DNA of 64,000 bases from an uncultured Candidatus Saccharibacteria bacterium (GCA_964562615.1 CAZLUD010000002.1:17907-81906); one strand, 5' to 3'. Numbered from the stretch's first letter, positions 8,664-14,844 are shown. Notes: generated from the sequence alone by a model not told the origin. Translations and numbers: made by a program.

Positions 8664-8921
8664 ATGAGCGACACAAGAGTCGTGGTTCAAAAAATTCTTG
8701 AAGATGTACAAAGGATAAGGAGAGAAAAAGTACCACACAAAACCTTGCCCAAAATAAGTTCAGGTATGAGAGTGAAAATTCAAATTGGGCATAGCAGTTT
8801 CATCGGAACTGCTGTAGCGGATAGCTATAGGGGATTTGTCTCTGTCAATTATATTGGTCCAGATGGATCGGAAGAAACTAGATCAATTAGTTTGCGATTG
8901 GCAACCCGCATACAAGAATAG
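8664..8921 (+). CDS. Hypothetical small protein
   Basis: GGAGG RBS 6 nt upstream of ATG 8664. No recognisable domain. It lies between murF and the tRNA. Confidence 0.35.
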   Translation: MSDTRVVVQKILEDVQRIRREKVPHKTLPKISSGMRVKIQIGHSSFIGTAVADSYRGFVSVNYIGPDGSEETRSISLRLATRIQE

Positions 8922-8948
8922 ATATCAAGTAATCAAAAGGTGGGTAAT

Positions 8949-8980
8949 GAAGGGGTCAATTCGTTGACCCCTTCATTTAT
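8949..8980 (+). terminator. Rho-independent terminator
   Basis: GAAGGGGTCAA-TTCG-TTGACCCCTTC hairpin followed by ATTTATT. Confidence 0.7.
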
Positions 8981-9008
8981 TGCATTTAAGGCCATTTTCC
9001 TCCATAAT
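8980..9008 (+). promoter_or_regulatory. Sigma70-like promoter for the tRNA
   Basis: TTGCAT -35, 17-nt spacer, CATAAT -10. The tRNA 5' end lies about 11 nt downstream. Confidence 0.6.
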
Positions 9009-9019
9009 CGTAACTACTT

Positions 9020-9091
9020 GGCCCTATCGTCTAACGGTTAGGACGGAGCCTTCTCAAGGCTTAAATCGGGGTTCGATTCCCCGTAGGGTCA
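9020..9091 (+). tRNA. tRNA-Glu (anticodon CUC), no encoded CCA
   Basis: Manual cloverleaf: acceptor GGCCCTA/TAGGGTC, D-arm GTCT/GGAC, anticodon stem GAGCC/GGCTT with loop TTCTCAA, T-arm CGGGG-TTCGATT-CCCCG. Confidence 0.8.
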
Positions 9092-9093
9092 CA

Positions 9094-9225
9094 AATCGGC
9101 CGACCGAATACGCGAATGCGTTTCGGTCGTTGCCGTTTGTAGGCACTACGGGGAATCGAACGACGGAGGCGGTATACAAGAACCGAAGCGAAGCGTAGGT
9201 TGCTTGTCGCCGAGTCGCGACCAGC
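9094..9225. repeat. 132-bp direct repeat unit A (copy 1). It contains a hairpin and an inverted 16-nt tRNA T-arm fragment
   Basis: Identical to 14325-14456. It contains ctacggggaatcgaac, the reverse complement of the tRNA T-arm. Confidence 0.9.
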
Positions 9226-9294
9226 GTGCTTAGCCAGAATGGCTTAGCAAAAGCGGGTCGATTCCCCGTAGGGTCACAAATCGAGACGAAGTCT

Positions 9295-9539
9295 CGTTTT
9301 GTGATGAAATACTAGCCTTTGCTCGAACCCATTTCGAGAAAAGACCATAACTACAACGCGTCGAGCGCGTGGTGGCTTTGTACTTCTGCGTACGCATTGG
9401 GGTGTGGCGCGCCTCGCCACTCGCTAATCGCTCGCCCCCAACCAATGAAATATCCTTACTTTTTGATTTTTCGGTGGAGGGGTCTGGGGAGGAGCCGACA
9501 AAAAATTGAAAGGATATTTCTTTGGTTTGGGGTCGCCGC
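9295..9539. repeat. Left arm (about 245 bp) of the terminal inverted repeat flanking the island cargo
   Basis: It is the reverse complement of 14082-14326. The outer tip cgttttgtga approximates the reverse complement of the core. Confidence 0.9.
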
Positions 9540-9574
9540 CATGAGTCTAGAAATAAGATTTTGTCCACGATCAA

Positions 9575-9598
9575 ACTATTATACTTTAATATAATAGT
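9575..9598 (+). promoter_or_regulatory. C-box-like palindromic operator upstream of the controller gene
   Basis: Perfect 9-bp inverted repeat ACTATTATA-n6-TATAATAGT, ending in AGTC like C.PvuII-type C-boxes. Tandem TATAAT boxes lie at 9603 and 9621. Confidence 0.55.
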
Positions 9599-9633
9599 CG
9601 TGTATAATGTAAGAGTTGGGTATAATTGTGGAG

Positions 9634-9837
9634 ATGAATGATTCCGCAAAGCTCGGCATGAATTTGAAAAAAATTCGCGAAGCGAAAAATATGTCTCAAG
9701 GTGACGTTATGCGCGTTATGGGTTGCAGTCGTAGTTATGTTAGCAACATCGAAAATGGAAAGACAAACCCCACCCTTGAGACAATTTCAAAACTAGCGAA
9801 GGTACTCGATGTAAGCACCATTGAGCTATTAAAATAG
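9634..9837 (+). CDS. XRE-family HTH regulator, candidate restriction-modification controller (C protein), probably leaderless
   Basis: HTH motif MSQGDVMRVMGCSRSYVSNIENGK. The ATG lies about 8 nt after the TATAAT at 9621-9626. The track used a TTG at 9616. Confidence 0.7.
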   Translation: MNDSAKLGMNLKKIREAKNMSQGDVMRVMGCSRSYVSNIENGKTNPTLETISKLAKVLDVSTIELLK

Positions 9838-9841
9838 AATT

Positions 9842-10798
9842 ATGACTACGCAACAAACAATCGCAAAACTCGCATATGAGTTAAAAATCAATAAAATCTA
9901 CGCGCGTCATGTTTTTCATAATGCAGACAAAACGAGATTATTTGAAGATGCGGCTCGAATTGTTAATGAGAAGCCAAAACCTTTCGTGAAATGGGTTGGA
10001 GGAAAAAGACAGTTGCTCCGCCAATTTCGTGATATGGGGTTATATCCACCTGATGATTTTGATCCTGTTACCAATACATACTTTGAGCCGTTTGTTGGCG
10101 GTGGAGCTGTCTTTTTCGATCTTCTGCCTCAGAAAGCAGAACTTTCTGATCTCAATACAGAACTTGTGACAACATACAACGTCATTAAAAATGACGTTGA
10201 TGCACTAATTAATTCACTCAAAAAACACAAGTACGAAAAAGAGTACTATCTAGAATTGCGTGCAAAAGATCCCAAAGAACTATCAGATATAAATGTTGCT
10301 TCTCGGTTCATTTTTCTTAATCGCACTTGCTTCAATGGCATGTATAGGGTCAATAGCAAAGGTGAATTCAATGTTCCGTTTGGGAAATATACAAACCCTA
10401 TAATTTGTGACGGAGATAATTTGTTTAAAGTATCGAAATCACTAAAAAAAGTAACTATCAAAAATCAAGACTATAAAAAAGTTTTGGATAAAGCAAAAAA
10501 AGGAGATTTTGTATATTTCGATCCACCTTATTATCCAGTAAGTAAAACTGCTTCCTTCACTTCATATACAGCAGATGCTTTTTTAGAAAAAGAACAGACA
10601 GAGTTGAGAGATACATTCGTAGAATTACATAAACGTGGTTGTTTTGTCATGCTTTCTAACTCCGATACTTCAGTTATCAACGAACTATACTCGAATATTA
10701 AGGATATCAAAGTATCAAAAGTTGCTGCAAGCCGTGCCATAAACTCAAATGCTTCAAAGCGAGGAAAGATAAGTGAAGTTTTAGTAACTAACTATTAA
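9842..10798 (+). CDS. Dam-family (D12 class, alpha) N6-adenine DNA methyltransferase with a 55-aa N-terminal extension
   Basis: Motifs KWVGGKRQLL, FEPFVGGGAVFF (motif I) and FDPPY (motif IV). Confidence 0.85.
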   Translation: MTTQQTIAKLAYELKINKIYARHVFHNADKTRLFEDAARIVNEKPKPFVKWVGGKRQLLRQFRDMGLYPPDDFDPVTNTYFEPFVGGGAVFFDLLPQKAELSDLNTELVTTYNVIKNDVDALINSLKKHKYEKEYYLELRAKDPKELSDINVASRFIFLNRTCFNGMYRVNSKGEFNVPFGKYTNPIICDGDNLFKVSKSLKKVTIKNQDYKKVLDKAKKGDFVYFDPPYYPVSKTASFTSYTADAFLEKEQTELRDTFVELHKRGCFVMLSNSDTSVINELYSNIKDIKVSKVAASRAINSNASKRGKISEVLVTNY

Positions 10799-10801
10799 AT
10801 T

Positions 10802-11329
10802 ATGATTAAGGGTGGCGTTGGAGGAGGAAATACAAAAACAGGATTACACTTTGAAGGTCGAATTAATATTGTCGATCTACTAAATAGCCAGCCTGGCTAC
10901 AAAGTGACGAAAGATGTTGTCTACTTTGAGGGTTCAGAAGTCGCAATCTGCCTTGCAAAACATAAATTGTATAAATGGCTTGAAACTCAAAACATAGACT
11001 ACAAAAAGTACATATCAAAAAAGTTGCTACCCGATGAGGCGTTGTATGTAATTGTAGACAACACTTTGTATGTCATTGAAATGAAGTTTCAGGAGACTCC
11101 TGGGTCAGTTGATGAAAAATTACAAACGTGTGATTTTAAGCGTAAGCAATACTCAAAATTGATGGCTCCACTAAACATTGAAGTTGAGTACATGTATGTA
11201 CTAAGTGAGTGGTTTCGTAAAGATGAATACAAAGACGTACTTGACTATATTATTTCAGTTGGATGTCAGTACTATTTTGAATATATACCATTACAGAAAC
11301 TCGGCTTACCTGTACCGAAAATACAATAA
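10802..11329 (+). CDS. Small PD-(D/E)xK nuclease, candidate type II restriction endonuclease
   Basis: 175 aa with LLPDE...VDNTLYVIEMK, giving PD-x14-ExK. It sits between two MTase genes. Confidence 0.5.
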   Translation: MIKGGVGGGNTKTGLHFEGRINIVDLLNSQPGYKVTKDVVYFEGSEVAICLAKHKLYKWLETQNIDYKKYISKKLLPDEALYVIVDNTLYVIEMKFQETPGSVDEKLQTCDFKRKQYSKLMAPLNIEVEYMYVLSEWFRKDEYKDVLDYIISVGCQYYFEYIPLQKLGLPVPKIQ

Positions 11330-11335
11330 TTATTC

Positions 11336-12088
11336 ATGGCTAAGGAAATGAAACTACACCCTGAAGAATTCGACCTTGAATGCACAACGGTGTGGGCATT
11401 TCCACGGCGTGGTAACTGGGCAACCCACAAATCAGACTGGCGTGGTAACTGGGCACCAGAAGTCGCCCGCAATCTAATCCTTCGATACTCTAACGAGGGT
11501 GACATTCTGCTAGATCCAATGATTGGCGGCGGTACTACTGCGATTGAAGCAAAGATACTCAATAGAAATATCATATGTTCAGACGTAAATGATATTGCAC
11601 TAGAACGAACAATGGAAAGTCTAAAATTTCCAGTTGAAAACAAATCGTGGCAAAAGATTGTTAAGAGGGATGCACGTGACCTCAGCAAGGCTGAAAATGA
11701 AAGTATTGATTTTATTCTCACTCACCCACCGTATGCTGATATTATCAAATATAGTGAGGGAGAAATTGATGAAGATCTTTCAAATATCCACGCGATAGAC
11801 GAGTTTGCGGACGAAATGGAAAAAGTCGCTAGTGAATTGTATAGAGTCCTTAAGCCTGGTAAATTTTGCGCAATTTTGATCGGTGATACTCGACGTCAAA
11901 AAATGTATCAACCTCTCGCATATCGAGTTATGGATCGCTTTTTGAATGTAGGTTTCGATCTCAAAGAAGACATCATAAAAAGACAATACAACTGTAAGGC
12001 AACGGGTTTTTGGGTAAATAAATCAAAAGAAAATAATTTCTTACTAATAATGCACGAACATTTGTTTGTATTTCAAAAAGCAAATTAA
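11336..12088 (+). CDS. Amino (N6A/N4C) DNA methyltransferase with motif order X-I then IV
   Basis: TVWAFPRRGNWATH...GDILLDPMIGGGTTAIEA (motif X/I) followed by ILTHPPYADI (motif IV). Confidence 0.75.
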   Translation: MAKEMKLHPEEFDLECTTVWAFPRRGNWATHKSDWRGNWAPEVARNLILRYSNEGDILLDPMIGGGTTAIEAKILNRNIICSDVNDIALERTMESLKFPVENKSWQKIVKRDARDLSKAENESIDFILTHPPYADIIKYSEGEIDEDLSNIHAIDEFADEMEKVASELYRVLKPGKFCAILIGDTRRQKMYQPLAYRVMDRFLNVGFDLKEDIIKRQYNCKATGFWVNKSKENNFLLIMHEHLFVFQKAN

Positions 12089-13874
12089 CGATATGTCTTA
12101 CAAAATTTTAAAAATTTCCATAAACAACTATCGGTCTATCAAAAGAATCACATTGACCACACCCGAATTCGGAAATCCTACAATTATATGTGGCGCAAAC
12201 AACGTAGGAAAAACAAATTTTTTACGAGCAATAGATTTATTTTTTAATGAAGTAAATTTCAAAGCATCAAACGACATTCCCTATGAAATAGTCGAAGCAA
12301 CGCGAGGAGCTGGCTATAAGACCACCATAAGTATTGATTTCATCGATACTGCTACAAAGGAAAAGGTTGTTATAAAGAAAGTATTCCGAGAACAATCTGG
12401 GGAAAATGTAGTTGAGAGAACTGGATATAAAAAGCCGTATCGAAGTAACCGTAATAATATTTATGATACTGAGATTAGAAAATTTCTTGATAATTTCCGT
12501 TTTCTTTTCGTCGAAGCTAGTAATGTAGACATCCCTGCACTTGTTGCACAAATCACAAAAAATAATGTACTTTCTGGACTCGACAAATTACGCAAGAAAC
12601 AAACTAAACCGTTGGATATTTTGAAAAAATTTATTTCGGAATCCGAAAAATCACTACAAAATATCGAGACGAATATCACAAAAAATTTTCAAGACTTTGC
12701 ACATGGGATTGGCACTTACACTGAAGGCTTAGATGCAAAAGACTGGCAGATTAAATTCATTTTTCCTGAGTATGAATTCTTAAGAGAAGCTGTTGGTAAT
12801 ATGGTTAACTTAGTGATGCAGGACAGCAACCAAAAAGAGCTCGAAGCTAAAGGTAGTGGTATTCAAAGAATACTCTTACTCTCTCTAATAAAGTATATCT
12901 CTGAGAACACAAAGAAAACTGTAATTTGGGGTATTGATGAACCAGAGGCTTTTCTTCAGCCAGGACTTCAGAAAAAAGTTTTTGCCATAATAAAGGAGAT
13001 GTCACGAAACCTTGAGATATTCATAACGACACACTCACATCACTTTGTGGATATTGGGTACCTAGAGCCAGTGCATCTATTTAATGCTAAATATACTCAA
13101 CAAGCATACTCAAGAAAGAAGAACAAAGAATATCTGAAGATAAGCACTGAAGTAGATAAGGTTACAGGATACAACAAGGTACAAAAAATAAGAGAACATC
13201 TCGGAGTAGCAACAAACGACAGTTGGGAGATTCTGCCCTACAACTTAATTGTTGAAGGCAACGAGGACAAATTATATTTGCTTAAGCTTTTAGAAATTAA
13301 CGGACTCGATCAGCCGAAAATACTTACAGCTGACGGAGCGGATAAAGTTCCCGGATATCTAGTCTTTGTTAATATGTTTTGCCAAGAACAAAAAATAAAA
13401 CCGAAAATACGAACAATATTAGATCATGACGCAAAAGGAAAACAGGTCTCAAGCAGCCTTAAATCAAAGAACTATTCATTTGATCATAAGTTAGAATTTA
13501 TTGAAAGATTCGATGGTAAAAGTAACGCAACTTGGGAATATGACGTTGAAGATTTAATTTATCCTGAAATATTAATTAAATCCGTTAATAAAATACTACA
13601 AAAAAGAAATTATTCGATACTAAAAGTAAAAGAGACCGTCACAAAGAAGAATCAGCCGAGTTATCAGAAAGATTCAATTCTTTCATTCATTACAGCGCAG
13701 GTTAAAGAAGTTAACCAGGATAAAGAAGAGCTTGACTTTGAAAGTCCGTCACTCAAAATATTTCTTTGTACAACCACCTGTTCTCTACTTTCACAGACTA
13801 AGGACATAGCTAACTTGAACAAAAAATATCCTGAAATCCTGAAATATTTAAAACAGATATCTGTAGAATTTTGA
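12066..13874 (+). CDS. OLD-family ATP-dependent nuclease (ABC ATPase fused to TOPRIM); alternative start at 12093
   Basis: Walker A ICGANNVGKTN, signature GSGIQR, Walker B IDEPEAFL, H-loop TTHSHH. The C-terminal TOPRIM is LIVEGNEDK...ADGADK. Confidence 0.8.
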   Translation: MYFKKQINDMSYKILKISINNYRSIKRITLTTPEFGNPTIICGANNVGKTNFLRAIDLFFNEVNFKASNDIPYEIVEATRGAGYKTTISIDFIDTATKEKVVIKKVFREQSGENVVERTGYKKPYRSNRNNIYDTEIRKFLDNFRFLFVEASNVDIPALVAQITKNNVLSGLDKLRKKQTKPLDILKKFISESEKSLQNIETNITKNFQDFAHGIGTYTEGLDAKDWQIKFIFPEYEFLREAVGNMVNLVMQDSNQKELEAKGSGIQRILLLSLIKYISENTKKTVIWGIDEPEAFLQPGLQKKVFAIIKEMSRNLEIFITTHSHHFVDIGYLEPVHLFNAKYTQQAYSRKKNKEYLKISTEVDKVTGYNKVQKIREHLGVATNDSWEILPYNLIVEGNEDKLYLLKLLEINGLDQPKILTADGADKVPGYLVFVNMFCQEQKIKPKIRTILDHDAKGKQVSSSLKSKNYSFDHKLEFIERFDGKSNATWEYDVEDLIYPEILIKSVNKILQKRNYSILKVKETVTKKNQPSYQKDSILSFITAQVKEVNQDKEELDFESPSLKIFLCTTTCSLLSQTKDIANLNKKYPEILKYLKQISVEF

Positions 13875-14081: not shown

Positions 14082-14326
14082 GCGGCGACCCCAAACCAAA
14101 GAAATATCCTTTCAATTTTTTGTCGGCTCCTCCCCAGACCCCTCCACCGAAAAATCAAAAAGTAAGGATATTTCATTGGTTGGGGGCGAGCGATTAGCGA
14201 GTGGCGAGGCGCGCCACACCCCAATGCGTACGCAGAAGTACAAAGCCACCACGCGCTCGACGCGTTGTAGTTATGGTCTTTTCTCGAAATGGGTTCGAGC
14301 AAAGGCTAGTATTTCATCACAAATCG
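14082..14326. repeat. Right arm (about 245 bp) of the terminal inverted repeat
   Basis: It is the reverse complement of 9295-9539. It ends in the TCACAAATCG core, which abuts repeat unit A. Confidence 0.9.
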
Positions 14327-14456
14327 GCCGACCGAATACGCGAATGCGTTTCGGTCGTTGCCGTTTGTAGGCACTACGGGGAATCGAACGACGGAGGCGG
14401 TATACAAGAACCGAAGCGAAGCGTAGGTTGCTTGTCGCCGAGTCGCGACCTAATTT
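14325..14456. repeat. 132-bp direct repeat unit A (copy 2)
   Basis: Identical to 9094-9225. It is followed by a 52-bp insertion flanked by GCGACC, then the shared 58-bp segment. Confidence 0.9.
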
Positions 14457-14563
14457 TTACGACCAAAGGGAGATAAAAATGGAAGTACTCTTTGTGGTGC
14501 GACCAGCGTGCTTAGCCAGAATGGCTTAGCAAAAGCGGGTCGATTCCCCGTAGGGTCACACGA

Positions 14564-14598
14564 AATCCTGGTACTAATTTTTTATTAGTACCAGGATT
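14564..14598. repeat. Perfect 15-bp palindrome with a T5 loop at the island/chromosome junction
   Basis: aatcctggtactaat-ttttt-attagtaccaggatt, immediately after the last tRNA 3' copy. Confidence 0.8.
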
Positions 14599-14691
14599 GC
14601 GCTTGTGATGCCTGGGAGGCAGAATCGAAAGCCGCAGCAAAGCGAGGCAGGGCAGGAGCCACTTAGGTTTCTGGGAGATATTGCTATTTAT

Positions 14692-14844
14692 CTATTTGAG
14701 TGGATTTTCACCGCGGATTACACGAATAAGTACTACAATAATAGCAATAACTAATAACACGTGAACGAATCCACCAACGGTATATGAGGTAACCATACCA
14801 AGAAGCCAAAGCACAACAAGAACAGCGGCGATAGTAGTAAGCAT
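14692..14844 (-). CDS. Small membrane protein, lmo0937-like family (50 aa). Absent from the ORF track because it is under 60 aa
   Basis: MLTTIAAVLVVLWLLGMVTSYTVGGFVHVLLVIAIIVVLIRVIRGENPLK matches the conserved LWLLG...GGxxHxLLVIAxIVxLIR pattern. Confidence 0.55.
   Translation of the reverse strand: MLTTIAAVLVVLWLLGMVTSYTVGGFVHVLLVIAIIVVLIRVIRGENPLK

Follow-up and report, generated by a model that had tools for sequence, protein, structure and literature searches.

Members of the CPR bacteria possess tiny genomes with little spare DNA, and the phylum is without many standard enzymes. Structured sequences connected with tRNA genes are known from other organisms, such as the t-elements of plant mitochondria and the 3′ external transcribed spacer (3′ ETS) RNAs of E. 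coli tRNA operons, which represent tRNA-like signals and trailer RNAs, respectively. The REP/BIME and Correia sequences are repetitive extragenic palindromes and MITE-like structured repeats. Within the Patescibacteria, group I introns of tRNA genes interrupt the anticodon loop at position 35/36 (PMC13011429). Restriction-modification (R-M) genes that lack accompanying mobility genes and are associated with long direct target duplications or with long inverted repeats have also been described (Furuta, Abe and Kobayashi 2010, PMC2853133).

Here, we describe a locus within a stretch of 64,000 nucleotides (the whole stretch that was analysed, referred to as the window) in which an intact tRNA-Glu(CTC) gene, the only tRNA gene of the window, is followed by a folded unit that recurs on the far side of a defence island. 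The unit is a member of a family of structured elements of 150-210 nt that are located immediately 3′ of tRNA genes, on the strand of the tRNA, in Paceibacteria (Patescibacteria/CPR). The best overall reading, to which we assign a probability of about 0.55, is that the unit is a tRNA-trailer RNA module, with a putative function as RNA, which was duplicated when an R-M cassette recombined into the locus.

Among the described systems, the t-elements and 3′ ETS RNAs share with the unit the position of a structured RNA right behind a tRNA on the same strand, and a part that mimics the stacked acceptor and T-arm; such mimicry could recruit tRNA end-processing enzymes. By analogy, the mode of action of the unit would be closest to that of a tRNA-trailer RNA bearing a tRNA-like handle for processing. 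Unlike these RNAs, however, its mimic is a continuous duplex without a T-loop, is derived from the neighbouring tRNA's own end, and belongs to an element that is multi-copy within a genome. REP/BIME and Correia repeats are likewise multi-copy and intergenic, with strong folds, a frequent location by terminators and near-identical copies (as for the unit in locus L049), yet the unit is fixed at tRNA 3′ ends in a fixed orientation, its ends are adapted to the neighbouring tRNA, it is larger and contains a three-way junction, and no RAYT-like transposase was seen. The group I introns of Patescibacteria (PMC13011429) are structured RNA elements tied to tRNA genes of the same phylum; they match group I models, whereas the unit follows an intact tRNA and has no intron-model match.

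Organization of the tRNA-Glu locus

The features of the locus are compiled in Table 1. Two direct repeats, both at 100% identity, can be recognized, one of 134 nt (9089-9222 = 14317-14450) and one of 62 nt (9217-9278 = 14499-14560), and combined they make up a unit of about 185-190 nt that flanks a 5-kb segment on either side, the offset between the two copies being 5228. The duplication of the unit is real and recent. An initial annotation of this DNA had reported a repeat A at 9094-9225 that equalled 14325-14456; the repeat itself is present, and its coordinates need correction, as the match to the start at 9094 is 14322-14450 (three bases off) and identity ends at 9222/14450. The 58-nt linker with the tRNA 3′ end that was said to follow each copy of A is exact in both (9221-9278 and 14503-14560), and the 34-nt linker occurs twice in the window versus 0 occurrences expected from shuffles.

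Table 1. Elements of the tRNA-Glu locus, numbered from the first nucleotide of the window
Feature	Position	Strand	Basis and remarks
tRNA-Glu(CTC)	9020..9092	+	ARAGORN; Rfam tRNA 61.5 bits; CCA not encoded
Unit copy 1 (H1a, antisense strand, P2, P3, pseudo-tRNA 3′ end)	9093..9280	+	Covariance model R1, 126.3 bits
H1a hairpin, directly after the tRNA	9097..9135	+	MFE structure; no U run, not terminator-like
Antisense copy of the tRNA 3′ end	9132..9161	+	Inverted repeats; exact 16-mer; covarying helix 1
P2 hairpin, GAC-GGA-GGCGG ... CGCC-GA-GUC	9161..9217	+	Conserved G-GA/GA internal loop
P3 hairpin	9219..9259	+	Conserved CUUAG/CUUAG U-U mismatch; helix 4
Pseudo-tRNA 3′ end	9255..9283	+	Direct copy of 9070-9098, 97%; 3′ strand of closing helix
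H1b palindrome TCACAAATCGAGAC-GAA-GTCTCGTTTTGTGA	9274..9304	+	Terminator-like hairpin with T run, ends unit 1
X, left arm of perfect 242-bp inverted repeat	9298..9539	+	Perfect match to X′
Defence cassette, low GC	9616..13874	+	Pfam, NCBIfam, PADLOC
X′, right arm	14082..14323	-	Meets unit copy 2 via shared TCACAAATCG
Unit copy 2	14317..14560	+	Same sequence as copy 1, plus one 54-nt period; R1 107.4 bits
Extra stem-loop segment of copy 2	14451..14498	+	Flanked by two GCGACC
H1c, 18-bp hairpin	14561..14601	+	Inverted repeat directly behind the pseudo-tRNA end of copy 2
Degenerate third unit	14623..14719	+	R1 16.7 bits, E 0.006, filters off

The sequence TCGATTCCCCGTAGGGTCACA, composed of the terminal 21 bases of the tRNA and two bases of the trailer, is encountered three times on the plus strand, at 9073, 9258 and 14540, with 0 expected. 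In the opposite sense, CTACGGGGAATCGAAC at 9146-9161 and 14374-14389 is the exact reverse complement of tRNA positions 9071-9086, so that the inverted T-arm fragment reported within A exists in each unit; over a longer interval, 9132-9161 matches 9071-9100 in inverted orientation across 30 nt at 80%, including the first bases after the tRNA. The hairpin noted earlier directly 3′ of the tRNA also appears in the MFE structure, and the last bases of the tRNA form the foot of this hairpin (H1a). Apart from the two copies, the R1 scan found no further strong copy in the window. The degenerate third unit retains P2 and half of P3, the remainder entering the 3′ end of a DUF5670 gene, and is kept in strains that are about 95% identical.

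The core common to all family members consists of the hairpins H1, P2 and P3. The stem of H1 begins within the final bases of the tRNA (TCACAAA ... TTTGTGA, where TCAC belongs to the tRNA and TTTGTGA closes the stem). In the family, P2 takes the form GAC-GGA-GGC ... GCC-GA-GUC, with an asymmetric internal loop in which tandem G-A pairs are possible, and P3 the form GGGGUCG ... GUGACC, with an ACUUA/UUAGU segment that includes a U-U mismatch or a GGAAAUUU/AAAUUAUC variant; the CUUAG/CUUAG motif of P3 can be read directly in the window and in L020, L035 and L057. Members of the subfamily to which the window belongs possess an extra helix of 22-25 bp that encloses P2 and P3, creating a three-way junction. 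The strands of this enclosing helix are the antisense copy (T-loop, T-stem, acceptor strand and trailer), which provides the 5′ strand, and a second sense copy of the tRNA T-loop/T-stem/acceptor strand plus ACAAA trailer, with an extra A opposite the discriminator position. As modelled, the enclosing helix resembles a minihelix of acceptor and T-arm to which the same ACAAA trailer is appended.

A family of elements behind tRNA genes

A BLAST search of the unit against 80 related loci gave short matches in L020 and L035, where the parts are arranged in the order tRNA, hairpin, inverted copy of the locus's own tRNA 3′ end, GAAAGACGGAGGCGG, hairpin, GCCGAGTC, hairpin, and direct copy of the tRNA 3′ end. 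The conserved 25-mer pattern ACGGGGARTYGAAMGRCGGAGGCGG was detected in 12 more loci among metagenome contigs. A covariance model (R1), built from 11 non-redundant units, returned 34 matches at E<1e-3 in 27 sources, these being Paceibacteria contigs. Nearly all matches begin within the final bases of a tRNA gene and share its strand, and the tRNAs that carry a unit comprise Glu, Ala(CGC), Ala(GGC), Gly(TCC), Ser(CGA) and Arg(CCT). In L049 there is also a weaker and partial match (E about 0.06) immediately 3′ of a Val(CAC) gene. In L049 and L091 tRNA genes are present on opposite strands of one locus, and each unit is oriented with its own tRNA.

In the related loci, which were gathered through MurF synteny or by sequence pattern so that unit frequencies are biased, a unit is found on the same strand within 60 nt of the 3′ end in 25 of 98 tRNA genes, and in 18 of 64 tRNA-Glu genes. 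Around one quarter of the sampled tRNA genes thus carry a folded element of 150-210 nt despite the tiny size of CPR genomes. The neighbouring genes of units, as classified with Pfam, mostly encode housekeeping enzymes rather than cargo. No conserved neighbour or partner gene was seen among the 16 sources with an exact pattern match, except for the upstream dcw cluster, which is shared because of how the loci were collected.

Searches with Rfam 15 at gathering and permissive thresholds recovered only tRNAs in the window and in seven to eight related loci, and in the interval 8900-9700 of the window nothing beyond the tRNA was found inside the unit at E<=10. Ribozymes, group I introns, tmRNA and 5S-like three-way junctions received no Rfam support as identities. 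A full-text literature search found no description of a tRNA-trailer motif in Patescibacteria or Parcubacteria, the closest papers dealing with group I introns of the anticodon loop and with TIGR arrays, and the family is apparently undescribed so far.

Besides serial integration or inversion, the initial annotation had proposed that A is a small satellite element that reconstitutes tRNA ends; A would instead be a simple segmental duplication scar if it occurred only here and showed no covariation or expression. More than 30 related copies were retrieved with R1, which contradicts an occurrence in this locus only, and covariation is present. A is thus one of a family of repeats in which the 3′ end of a tRNA is copied. 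A plain, functionless segmental duplication scar with accidental hairpins would account for the identity and recency of the copies and for the absence of another strong copy in the window; it is contradicted by the R1 matches and the covariation, as the more than 30 copies are spread over distant Paceibacteria (MurF 40-50%) at the same tRNA position with covarying helices, and we consider it very improbable.

Conservation and polarity of the fold

Single-sequence folds lie well below those of shuffled sequences (z of -7.4, -10.8, -9.4 and -5.5), the two copies of the window folding at -94.8 kcal/mol (copy 1, z -7.4) and -104.1 kcal/mol (copy 2, z -5.5). Across 34 aligned members, 89.9% of the cells are in standard pairs versus 31-50% when the partners are slid by 1-3 columns, two-sided changes occur in 23 of 29 pairs, and the covariation score is 0.293 (slid controls, <=0.062; shuffled, 0.101), values that come from an alignment (A2) fitted to the model, so that its pairing counts are inflated in favour of the structure. 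P2 contributes helices 2 and 3, which are 99% and 84% paired, with two-sided changes in 10 of 11 pairs. RNAalifold applied to a plain MAFFT alignment of 11 sequences found compensatory changes in 10 of 29 pairs.

In every subfamily member, according to this model, the inverted T-arm fragment pairs with the pseudo-tRNA end and so supplies one side of a helix that is conserved and covaries. The fragment is no relic of an inversion of the kind that the initial annotation had proposed.

The tRNA-sense strand is the more stable one in 30 of 30 units, by a mean of 10.7 kcal/mol, and has more G-U pairs. The conserved mismatches, the strand bias and the fixed orientation point to a unit that exists in a single-stranded form of tRNA polarity. 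RNA is most likely the form in which the modelled structure would act, and we lean towards an RNA-level function of the unit. Against an RNA form, the strand asymmetry and the G-T pairs would also suit a single-stranded DNA form.

The placement of terminators differs within the family. In many members H1 has a U run and resembles an intrinsic terminator, whereas H1a of the window is without one. A terminator scan found no terminator-like site between the tRNA and position 9282 in the window; the first such site is that of H1b at 9282-9296, which is followed by TTTTGTG and scores as an intrinsic terminator. This placement fits a predicted co-transcript of tRNA and unit. In the broader subfamily, an efficient terminator in the form of H1 would separate the tRNA from P2-P3, which argues against simple co-transcription there.

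Copies of the tRNA end and movement between loci

In ten units beside Glu, Ala and Gly tRNAs, the antisense and sense copies are mostly the best or tied-best matches to the local tRNA; the exceptions are L085, L086 and L093, where the sense copy is not the best match, and in the window the antisense strand agrees with the tRNA's acceptor portion at just 5 of 8 positions. The window, L085 and L090 have closely related H1, P2 and P3 hairpins with different tRNAs in front, and in L049 two units share 154 of 155 positions, with non-identical tRNA-Ala genes in front of them. Since related units stand behind different tRNAs with matched ends, the family would appear to move, or to be homogenised, among tRNA loci, with the helix kept paired. 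Candidate mechanisms are recombination at the conserved T-arm, with pairing maintained by selection, "correction" of quasi-palindromes by template switching, or the action of an enzyme that escaped notice.

Close units behind different tRNAs, each with end copies matched to its tRNA, would also be expected of a miniature, non-autonomous integrative element acting at the DNA level, or of a leftover recombination module, at the tRNA 3′ end. Here, the pseudo-tRNA end would be a duplicated att core, the antisense copy an inverted core-type site, and the R-M island a second element in tandem at the pseudo-tRNA end, with the recombinase encoded elsewhere. Other features agree with this explanation. 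A few units occur where no intact tRNA was called (L055, L088 and L018), and tRNA-Glu genes that encode CCA are without units (0 of about 15, versus 18 of about 49 others, a comparison in which genome kinship is ignored). Moreover, units may stand in tandem with a new H1 made from the pseudo-tRNA end (9274-9304 and 14561-14719 in the window; L088), and two adjacent segments are flanked by three direct copies of 21-29 nt from the tRNA 3′ end, an arrangement like that of tandem integrations. The compensatory helices, the U-U and G-A mismatches and the strand bias in 30 of 30 units are, however, unexpected for a double-stranded att site, most units precede housekeeping genes rather than cargo, and viral contigs scanned with three different patterns contain no unit match. 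Together with the lack of recombinase genes considered below, this leads us to regard the DNA-level explanation as rather unlikely.

Genomic islands and cis-mobilisable elements can be integrated in tandem at tRNA 3′ ends (attL - element - att - element - attR). As in those, three direct copies of a tRNA end bound two segments, the tRNA is intact, and the flank is variable relative to the nearest relative; unlike those, there is no integrase, one "element" has just 185 nt, the inverted core pairs with the direct copy and covaries, and the internal hairpins are conserved. Of the features of tRNA-targeting integrative elements, att-like direct repeats and an intact tRNA are present and a recombinase gene is absent.

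Three further identities were rejected. A retroviral-type primer binding site does not apply, as the antisense strand pairs with the genomic trailer ACAAA and not with CCA. An element derived from a MITE or IS would have inverted strands, which are present, but the "duplication" varies from approximately 6 to 29 nt among members. A phage origin was dismissed on the empty pattern scans of viral contigs.

Proposed function of the unit

In the tRNA-trailer reading, the unit would be transcribed jointly with tRNA-Glu, the transcript ending at H1b, and would act or be processed as RNA, with tRNA end-processing enzymes setting its 3′ end by way of the tRNA-end mimic. The second sense copy would hold the antisense strand, so that the real tRNA stays folded. 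Recombination at the conserved 3′ end of tRNA genes would have spread the family among tRNA loci or homogenised it there.

A more far-reaching and tentative proposal, which we put forward as possible though doubtful, is that the units constitute a new class of CPR tRNA-trailing RNA, in which a minihelix of the neighbour's acceptor/T-arm is rebuilt from antisense and sense copies around a conserved three-way junction. Such a class could serve as a processing or quality-control device in tRNA maturation, or it could be a protein-less RNA or single-stranded DNA mobile module that retargets itself by copying its target in both orientations. The copying of a neighbouring tRNA end in both orientations within a covarying structure suggests something not yet described, which could amount to a step in tRNA processing or control, or to a new way in which small elements that encode no enzyme of their own spread among tRNA loci.

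The restriction-modification island

MurF-anchored loci were obtained from species-representative genomes, the closest being L004, with a MurF that is 89% identical, and the rest having 40-50% identity; by this comparison they place the window in the Patescibacteria, class Paceibacteria. Window and L004 share a collinear arrangement, at about 82% nucleotide identity, as far as the final base of the tRNA, and collinearity resumes at the DUF5670 gene. The intervening DNA amounts to 5.6 kb in the window (units and island) and, in L004, to 3.6 kb of unrelated sequence that lacks the unit and the island. As the flanks are collinear but the interval is unrelated, this tRNA has a variable hot spot on its 3′ side.

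The island is bounded by the inverted repeats X and X′, which the initial annotation had overlooked, as it had the H1b palindrome and the degenerate third unit. The ten bases TCACAAATCG join X′ to copy 2 and likewise join the tRNA to copy 1, and the base of the H1 stem, TCACAAA(TCG), is found as a microhomology at the junction of X′ and the unit. H1b is a near-perfect palindrome right behind the first pseudo-tRNA end, and with its 3′ arm it forms the outer end of X. The outer 49 nt of X are 86% identical to L021 12390-12437, and X positions 175-228 are 87% identical to L071 9627-9677. A homology of X to the tRNA trailer of L004 gained no support from the comparison, and a transposon-type target duplication around the 242-bp inverted repeats was rejected, as the flanks differ.

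The cassette between the arms encodes a control protein (HTH), a Dam-family type II methyltransferase, a 175-aa putative nuclease, an N6_N4 type II methyltransferase and an OLD/GajA/AriA-like ATPase. It is foreign by composition, the GC content between the X arms being 0.33-0.39 versus about 0.44 elsewhere. The two methyltransferases and the control protein are identified with confidence. The 175-aa protein, presumed to be the product of the R gene, has only a sub-threshold PD-(D/E)XK match; it has more than 7,000 homologues, those with a named source belonging to Patescibacteria lineages. For the 73-aa HTH protein no exact database record was found. The M-R-M core is widespread: L100 has a 76%-identical M-R-M triad right after tRNA-Glu(TTC), another triad faces the 3′ end of a tRNA-Ser in L106, and further ones are located away from tRNAs. 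The borders of these related cassettes showed neither X nor the unit.

The occurrence of related R-M cassettes in tRNA 3′ flanks would again suit the DNA-level explanation. Against it, the five proteins of the island include no integrase, transposase, HUH nuclease or other recombinase, none of these recurs beside the more than 30 related units, and no transposase was found in any related locus. The initial annotation had invoked serial integration and inversion at this tRNA; a rearrangement did take place, in the form of 242-bp inverted and 190-bp direct repeats around an acquired island, and serial integration by a site-specific recombinase is not borne out by the gene content.

The island fits the pattern of R-M insertions described by Furuta, Abe and Kobayashi (PMC2853133), with the exception of the empty site. 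In common with those insertions it has no mobility gene, is shorter than 20 kb, has direct repeats of more than 30 bp (here about 190 bp) and inner long inverted repeats that are unique to the insert, and lies beside a tRNA. It differs in that both repeat types occur together and both are perfect, that the duplicated target is a member of a structured repeat family, and that no empty site was found to prove a target duplication.

The duplication is best explained by entry of the R-M island at a hot spot in the tRNA flank, either by way of the unit or beside it. A horizontally acquired R-M/ATPase cassette of 4.5 kb with 242-bp inverted repeats would have entered beside the unit, either by an insertion that left approximately 190 bp of its target in two copies (a "long target duplication"), or as a 5,228-bp circle with one unit by Campbell-style recombination through the resident unit. 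Among the relatives examined there was no empty-site allele (a single repeat copy without the island), and no independent contig across the junctions, sought via spanning ORFs, is on record, so that the route, and an integrated rather than an episomal state of the island, are tentative. The locus marks tRNA 3′ flanks as entry points for defence islands.

Assembly and the extra stem-loop period

Short-read contigs of the same samples (SRR12762285 and SRR12762287) end exactly at the repeat borders, the unique part of the R-M segment being a separate contig of 4602 bp with 30 nt of X on both ends, and contigs of strains that are about 95% identical end at the repeat as well. These contig ends fit a repeat graph, by which the order of the pieces is not independently proven. 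They would also be produced if the chromosome had one unit (tRNA-A-ins-linker-downstream) and a circular or variant molecule of 5,228 bp (A-linker-H1b-X-RM-X′) had been threaded into it by the assembler via the 134-nt repeat, and the repeat period of 5228 closes such a circle exactly. Yet one contig spans both copies, for which assemblers normally need the support of reads or pairs, and the copies are otherwise 100% identical, as for a recent event in place, so that an assembly effect seems improbable; the element would in that case still carry a unit and integrate through it, and the biology would be little altered. For annotation, the family accounts for repeat-induced contig breaks and for pseudo-tRNA ends beside tRNA genes in Patescibacteria MAGs.

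The sole difference between the copies, the extra segment of copy 2, had been described as a 52-bp insertion bracketed by GCGACC. The bracketing holds; the segment measures 48 nt (14451-14498), or 54 nt with one GCGACC, and corresponds to a single 54-nt period, counted from GCGACC to GCGACC, of a stem-loop repeat family that is separate from the unit. Slippage could have added or removed the period at a later time, or it could mark two parental molecules, which it would tell apart in the assembly explanation just given; under the duplication reading preferred here, the copies would have diverged afterwards by one such period between GCGACC repeats. A TIGR array is at most a doubtful candidate for the identity of the period, the resemblance to the stem-loop arrays of PMC12045711 being loose and no Tas gene lying near the array in L055. 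Other Paceibacteria also have the stem-loop family, with a single occurrence in L021 and a tandem array in L055.

Cassettes beside tRNA genes

The R-M/ATPase cassette is bracketed by a perfect 242-bp inverted repeat and could therefore invert by homologous recombination. The outer 49 nt of the repeat resemble positions 12390-12437 of the related locus L021, and its inner hairpin with GGAGGGGTCTGGGGAGGAGCC (window 9435-9532) resembles L071 9600-9680.

Related triads of a Dam-MTase, the 175-aa protein and an N6_N4-MTase are found elsewhere, one directly after tRNA-Glu(TTC) (L100; 76% nucleotide identity to window 9971-12077) and another facing the 3′ end of tRNA-Ser(GGA) (L106), which suggests that this cassette has repeatedly settled in the 3′ flanks of tRNA genes. 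Searches of Pfam, NCBIfam and PADLOC assigned the 175-aa protein to no family and gave only a sub-threshold PD-(D/E)XK_11 match; it has more than 7,000 homologues, and those with a source name belong to Patescibacteria lineages. The protein probably represents a small restriction endonuclease that has not yet been catalogued.

In L004, the closest relative of the window, a perfect 283-nt tandem duplication with a spacing of 311 (11945-12538) lies 3′ of the same tRNA-Glu, in a variable region unrelated to that of the window.

Coordinates of repeats, units and cassette genes
Feature	Locus	Position	Remark
Inverted repeat, arms	window	9298-9539; 14082-14323	242 bp
175-aa protein	window	10802-11329	between both methyltransferases
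MTase triad	L100	6868-9275	
MTase triad	L106	4029-6776	
Stem-loop repeat	window	14451-14498	
Stem-loop repeat	L055	5830-6090	
Stem-loop repeat	L021	11915-11965	
Third unit	window	14623-14719	weak, degenerate; P2 and half of P3 present
Units	L049	2499-4844; 17526-17701	
Weaker partial match	L049	3821-3906	E ~0.06
Two tRNA-Glu(CTC) genes with units	L039	7378-10000	

Units behind other tRNA genes

Among 64 tRNA-Glu genes (loci L004-L095), the structured unit follows none of the approximately 15 that encode CCA versus 18 of the approximately 49 that do not, and most unit-bearing genes carry TCA-CAAA at the CCA position. The 21 kb of L049 contain three units that score clearly (E<1e-3), besides a partial match that is weaker; two of these, identical at 154 of 155 positions, stand behind tRNA-Ala(CGC) and tRNA-Ala(GGC), tRNAs that themselves differ. 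L039 has two tRNA-Glu(CTC) genes separated by 2.4 kb, and the units behind them belong to different subtypes; the three ORFs between the two genes have no Pfam family, and this segment is possibly another small unit-bounded island.

A third unit and a stem-loop repeat

After H1c, the hairpin that follows unit copy 2 in the window, comes a weak, degenerate third unit, which overlaps the DUF5670 gene at its 3′ end and is kept in strains of about 95% identity (L099). Its 'antisense' segment has no match to tRNA-Glu.

The additional segment in copy 2 of the unit represents a single period of a stem-loop repeat (CGACC-UAAAnUUU..loop..AAAnUUUGG-AAGU-variable). In L055, copies of this repeat are arrayed in tandem, with an aaRS gene on one side and mraZ on the other. 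No Tas-like gene was found near this array, which loosely resembles the arrays of stem-loop guides in TIGR systems.
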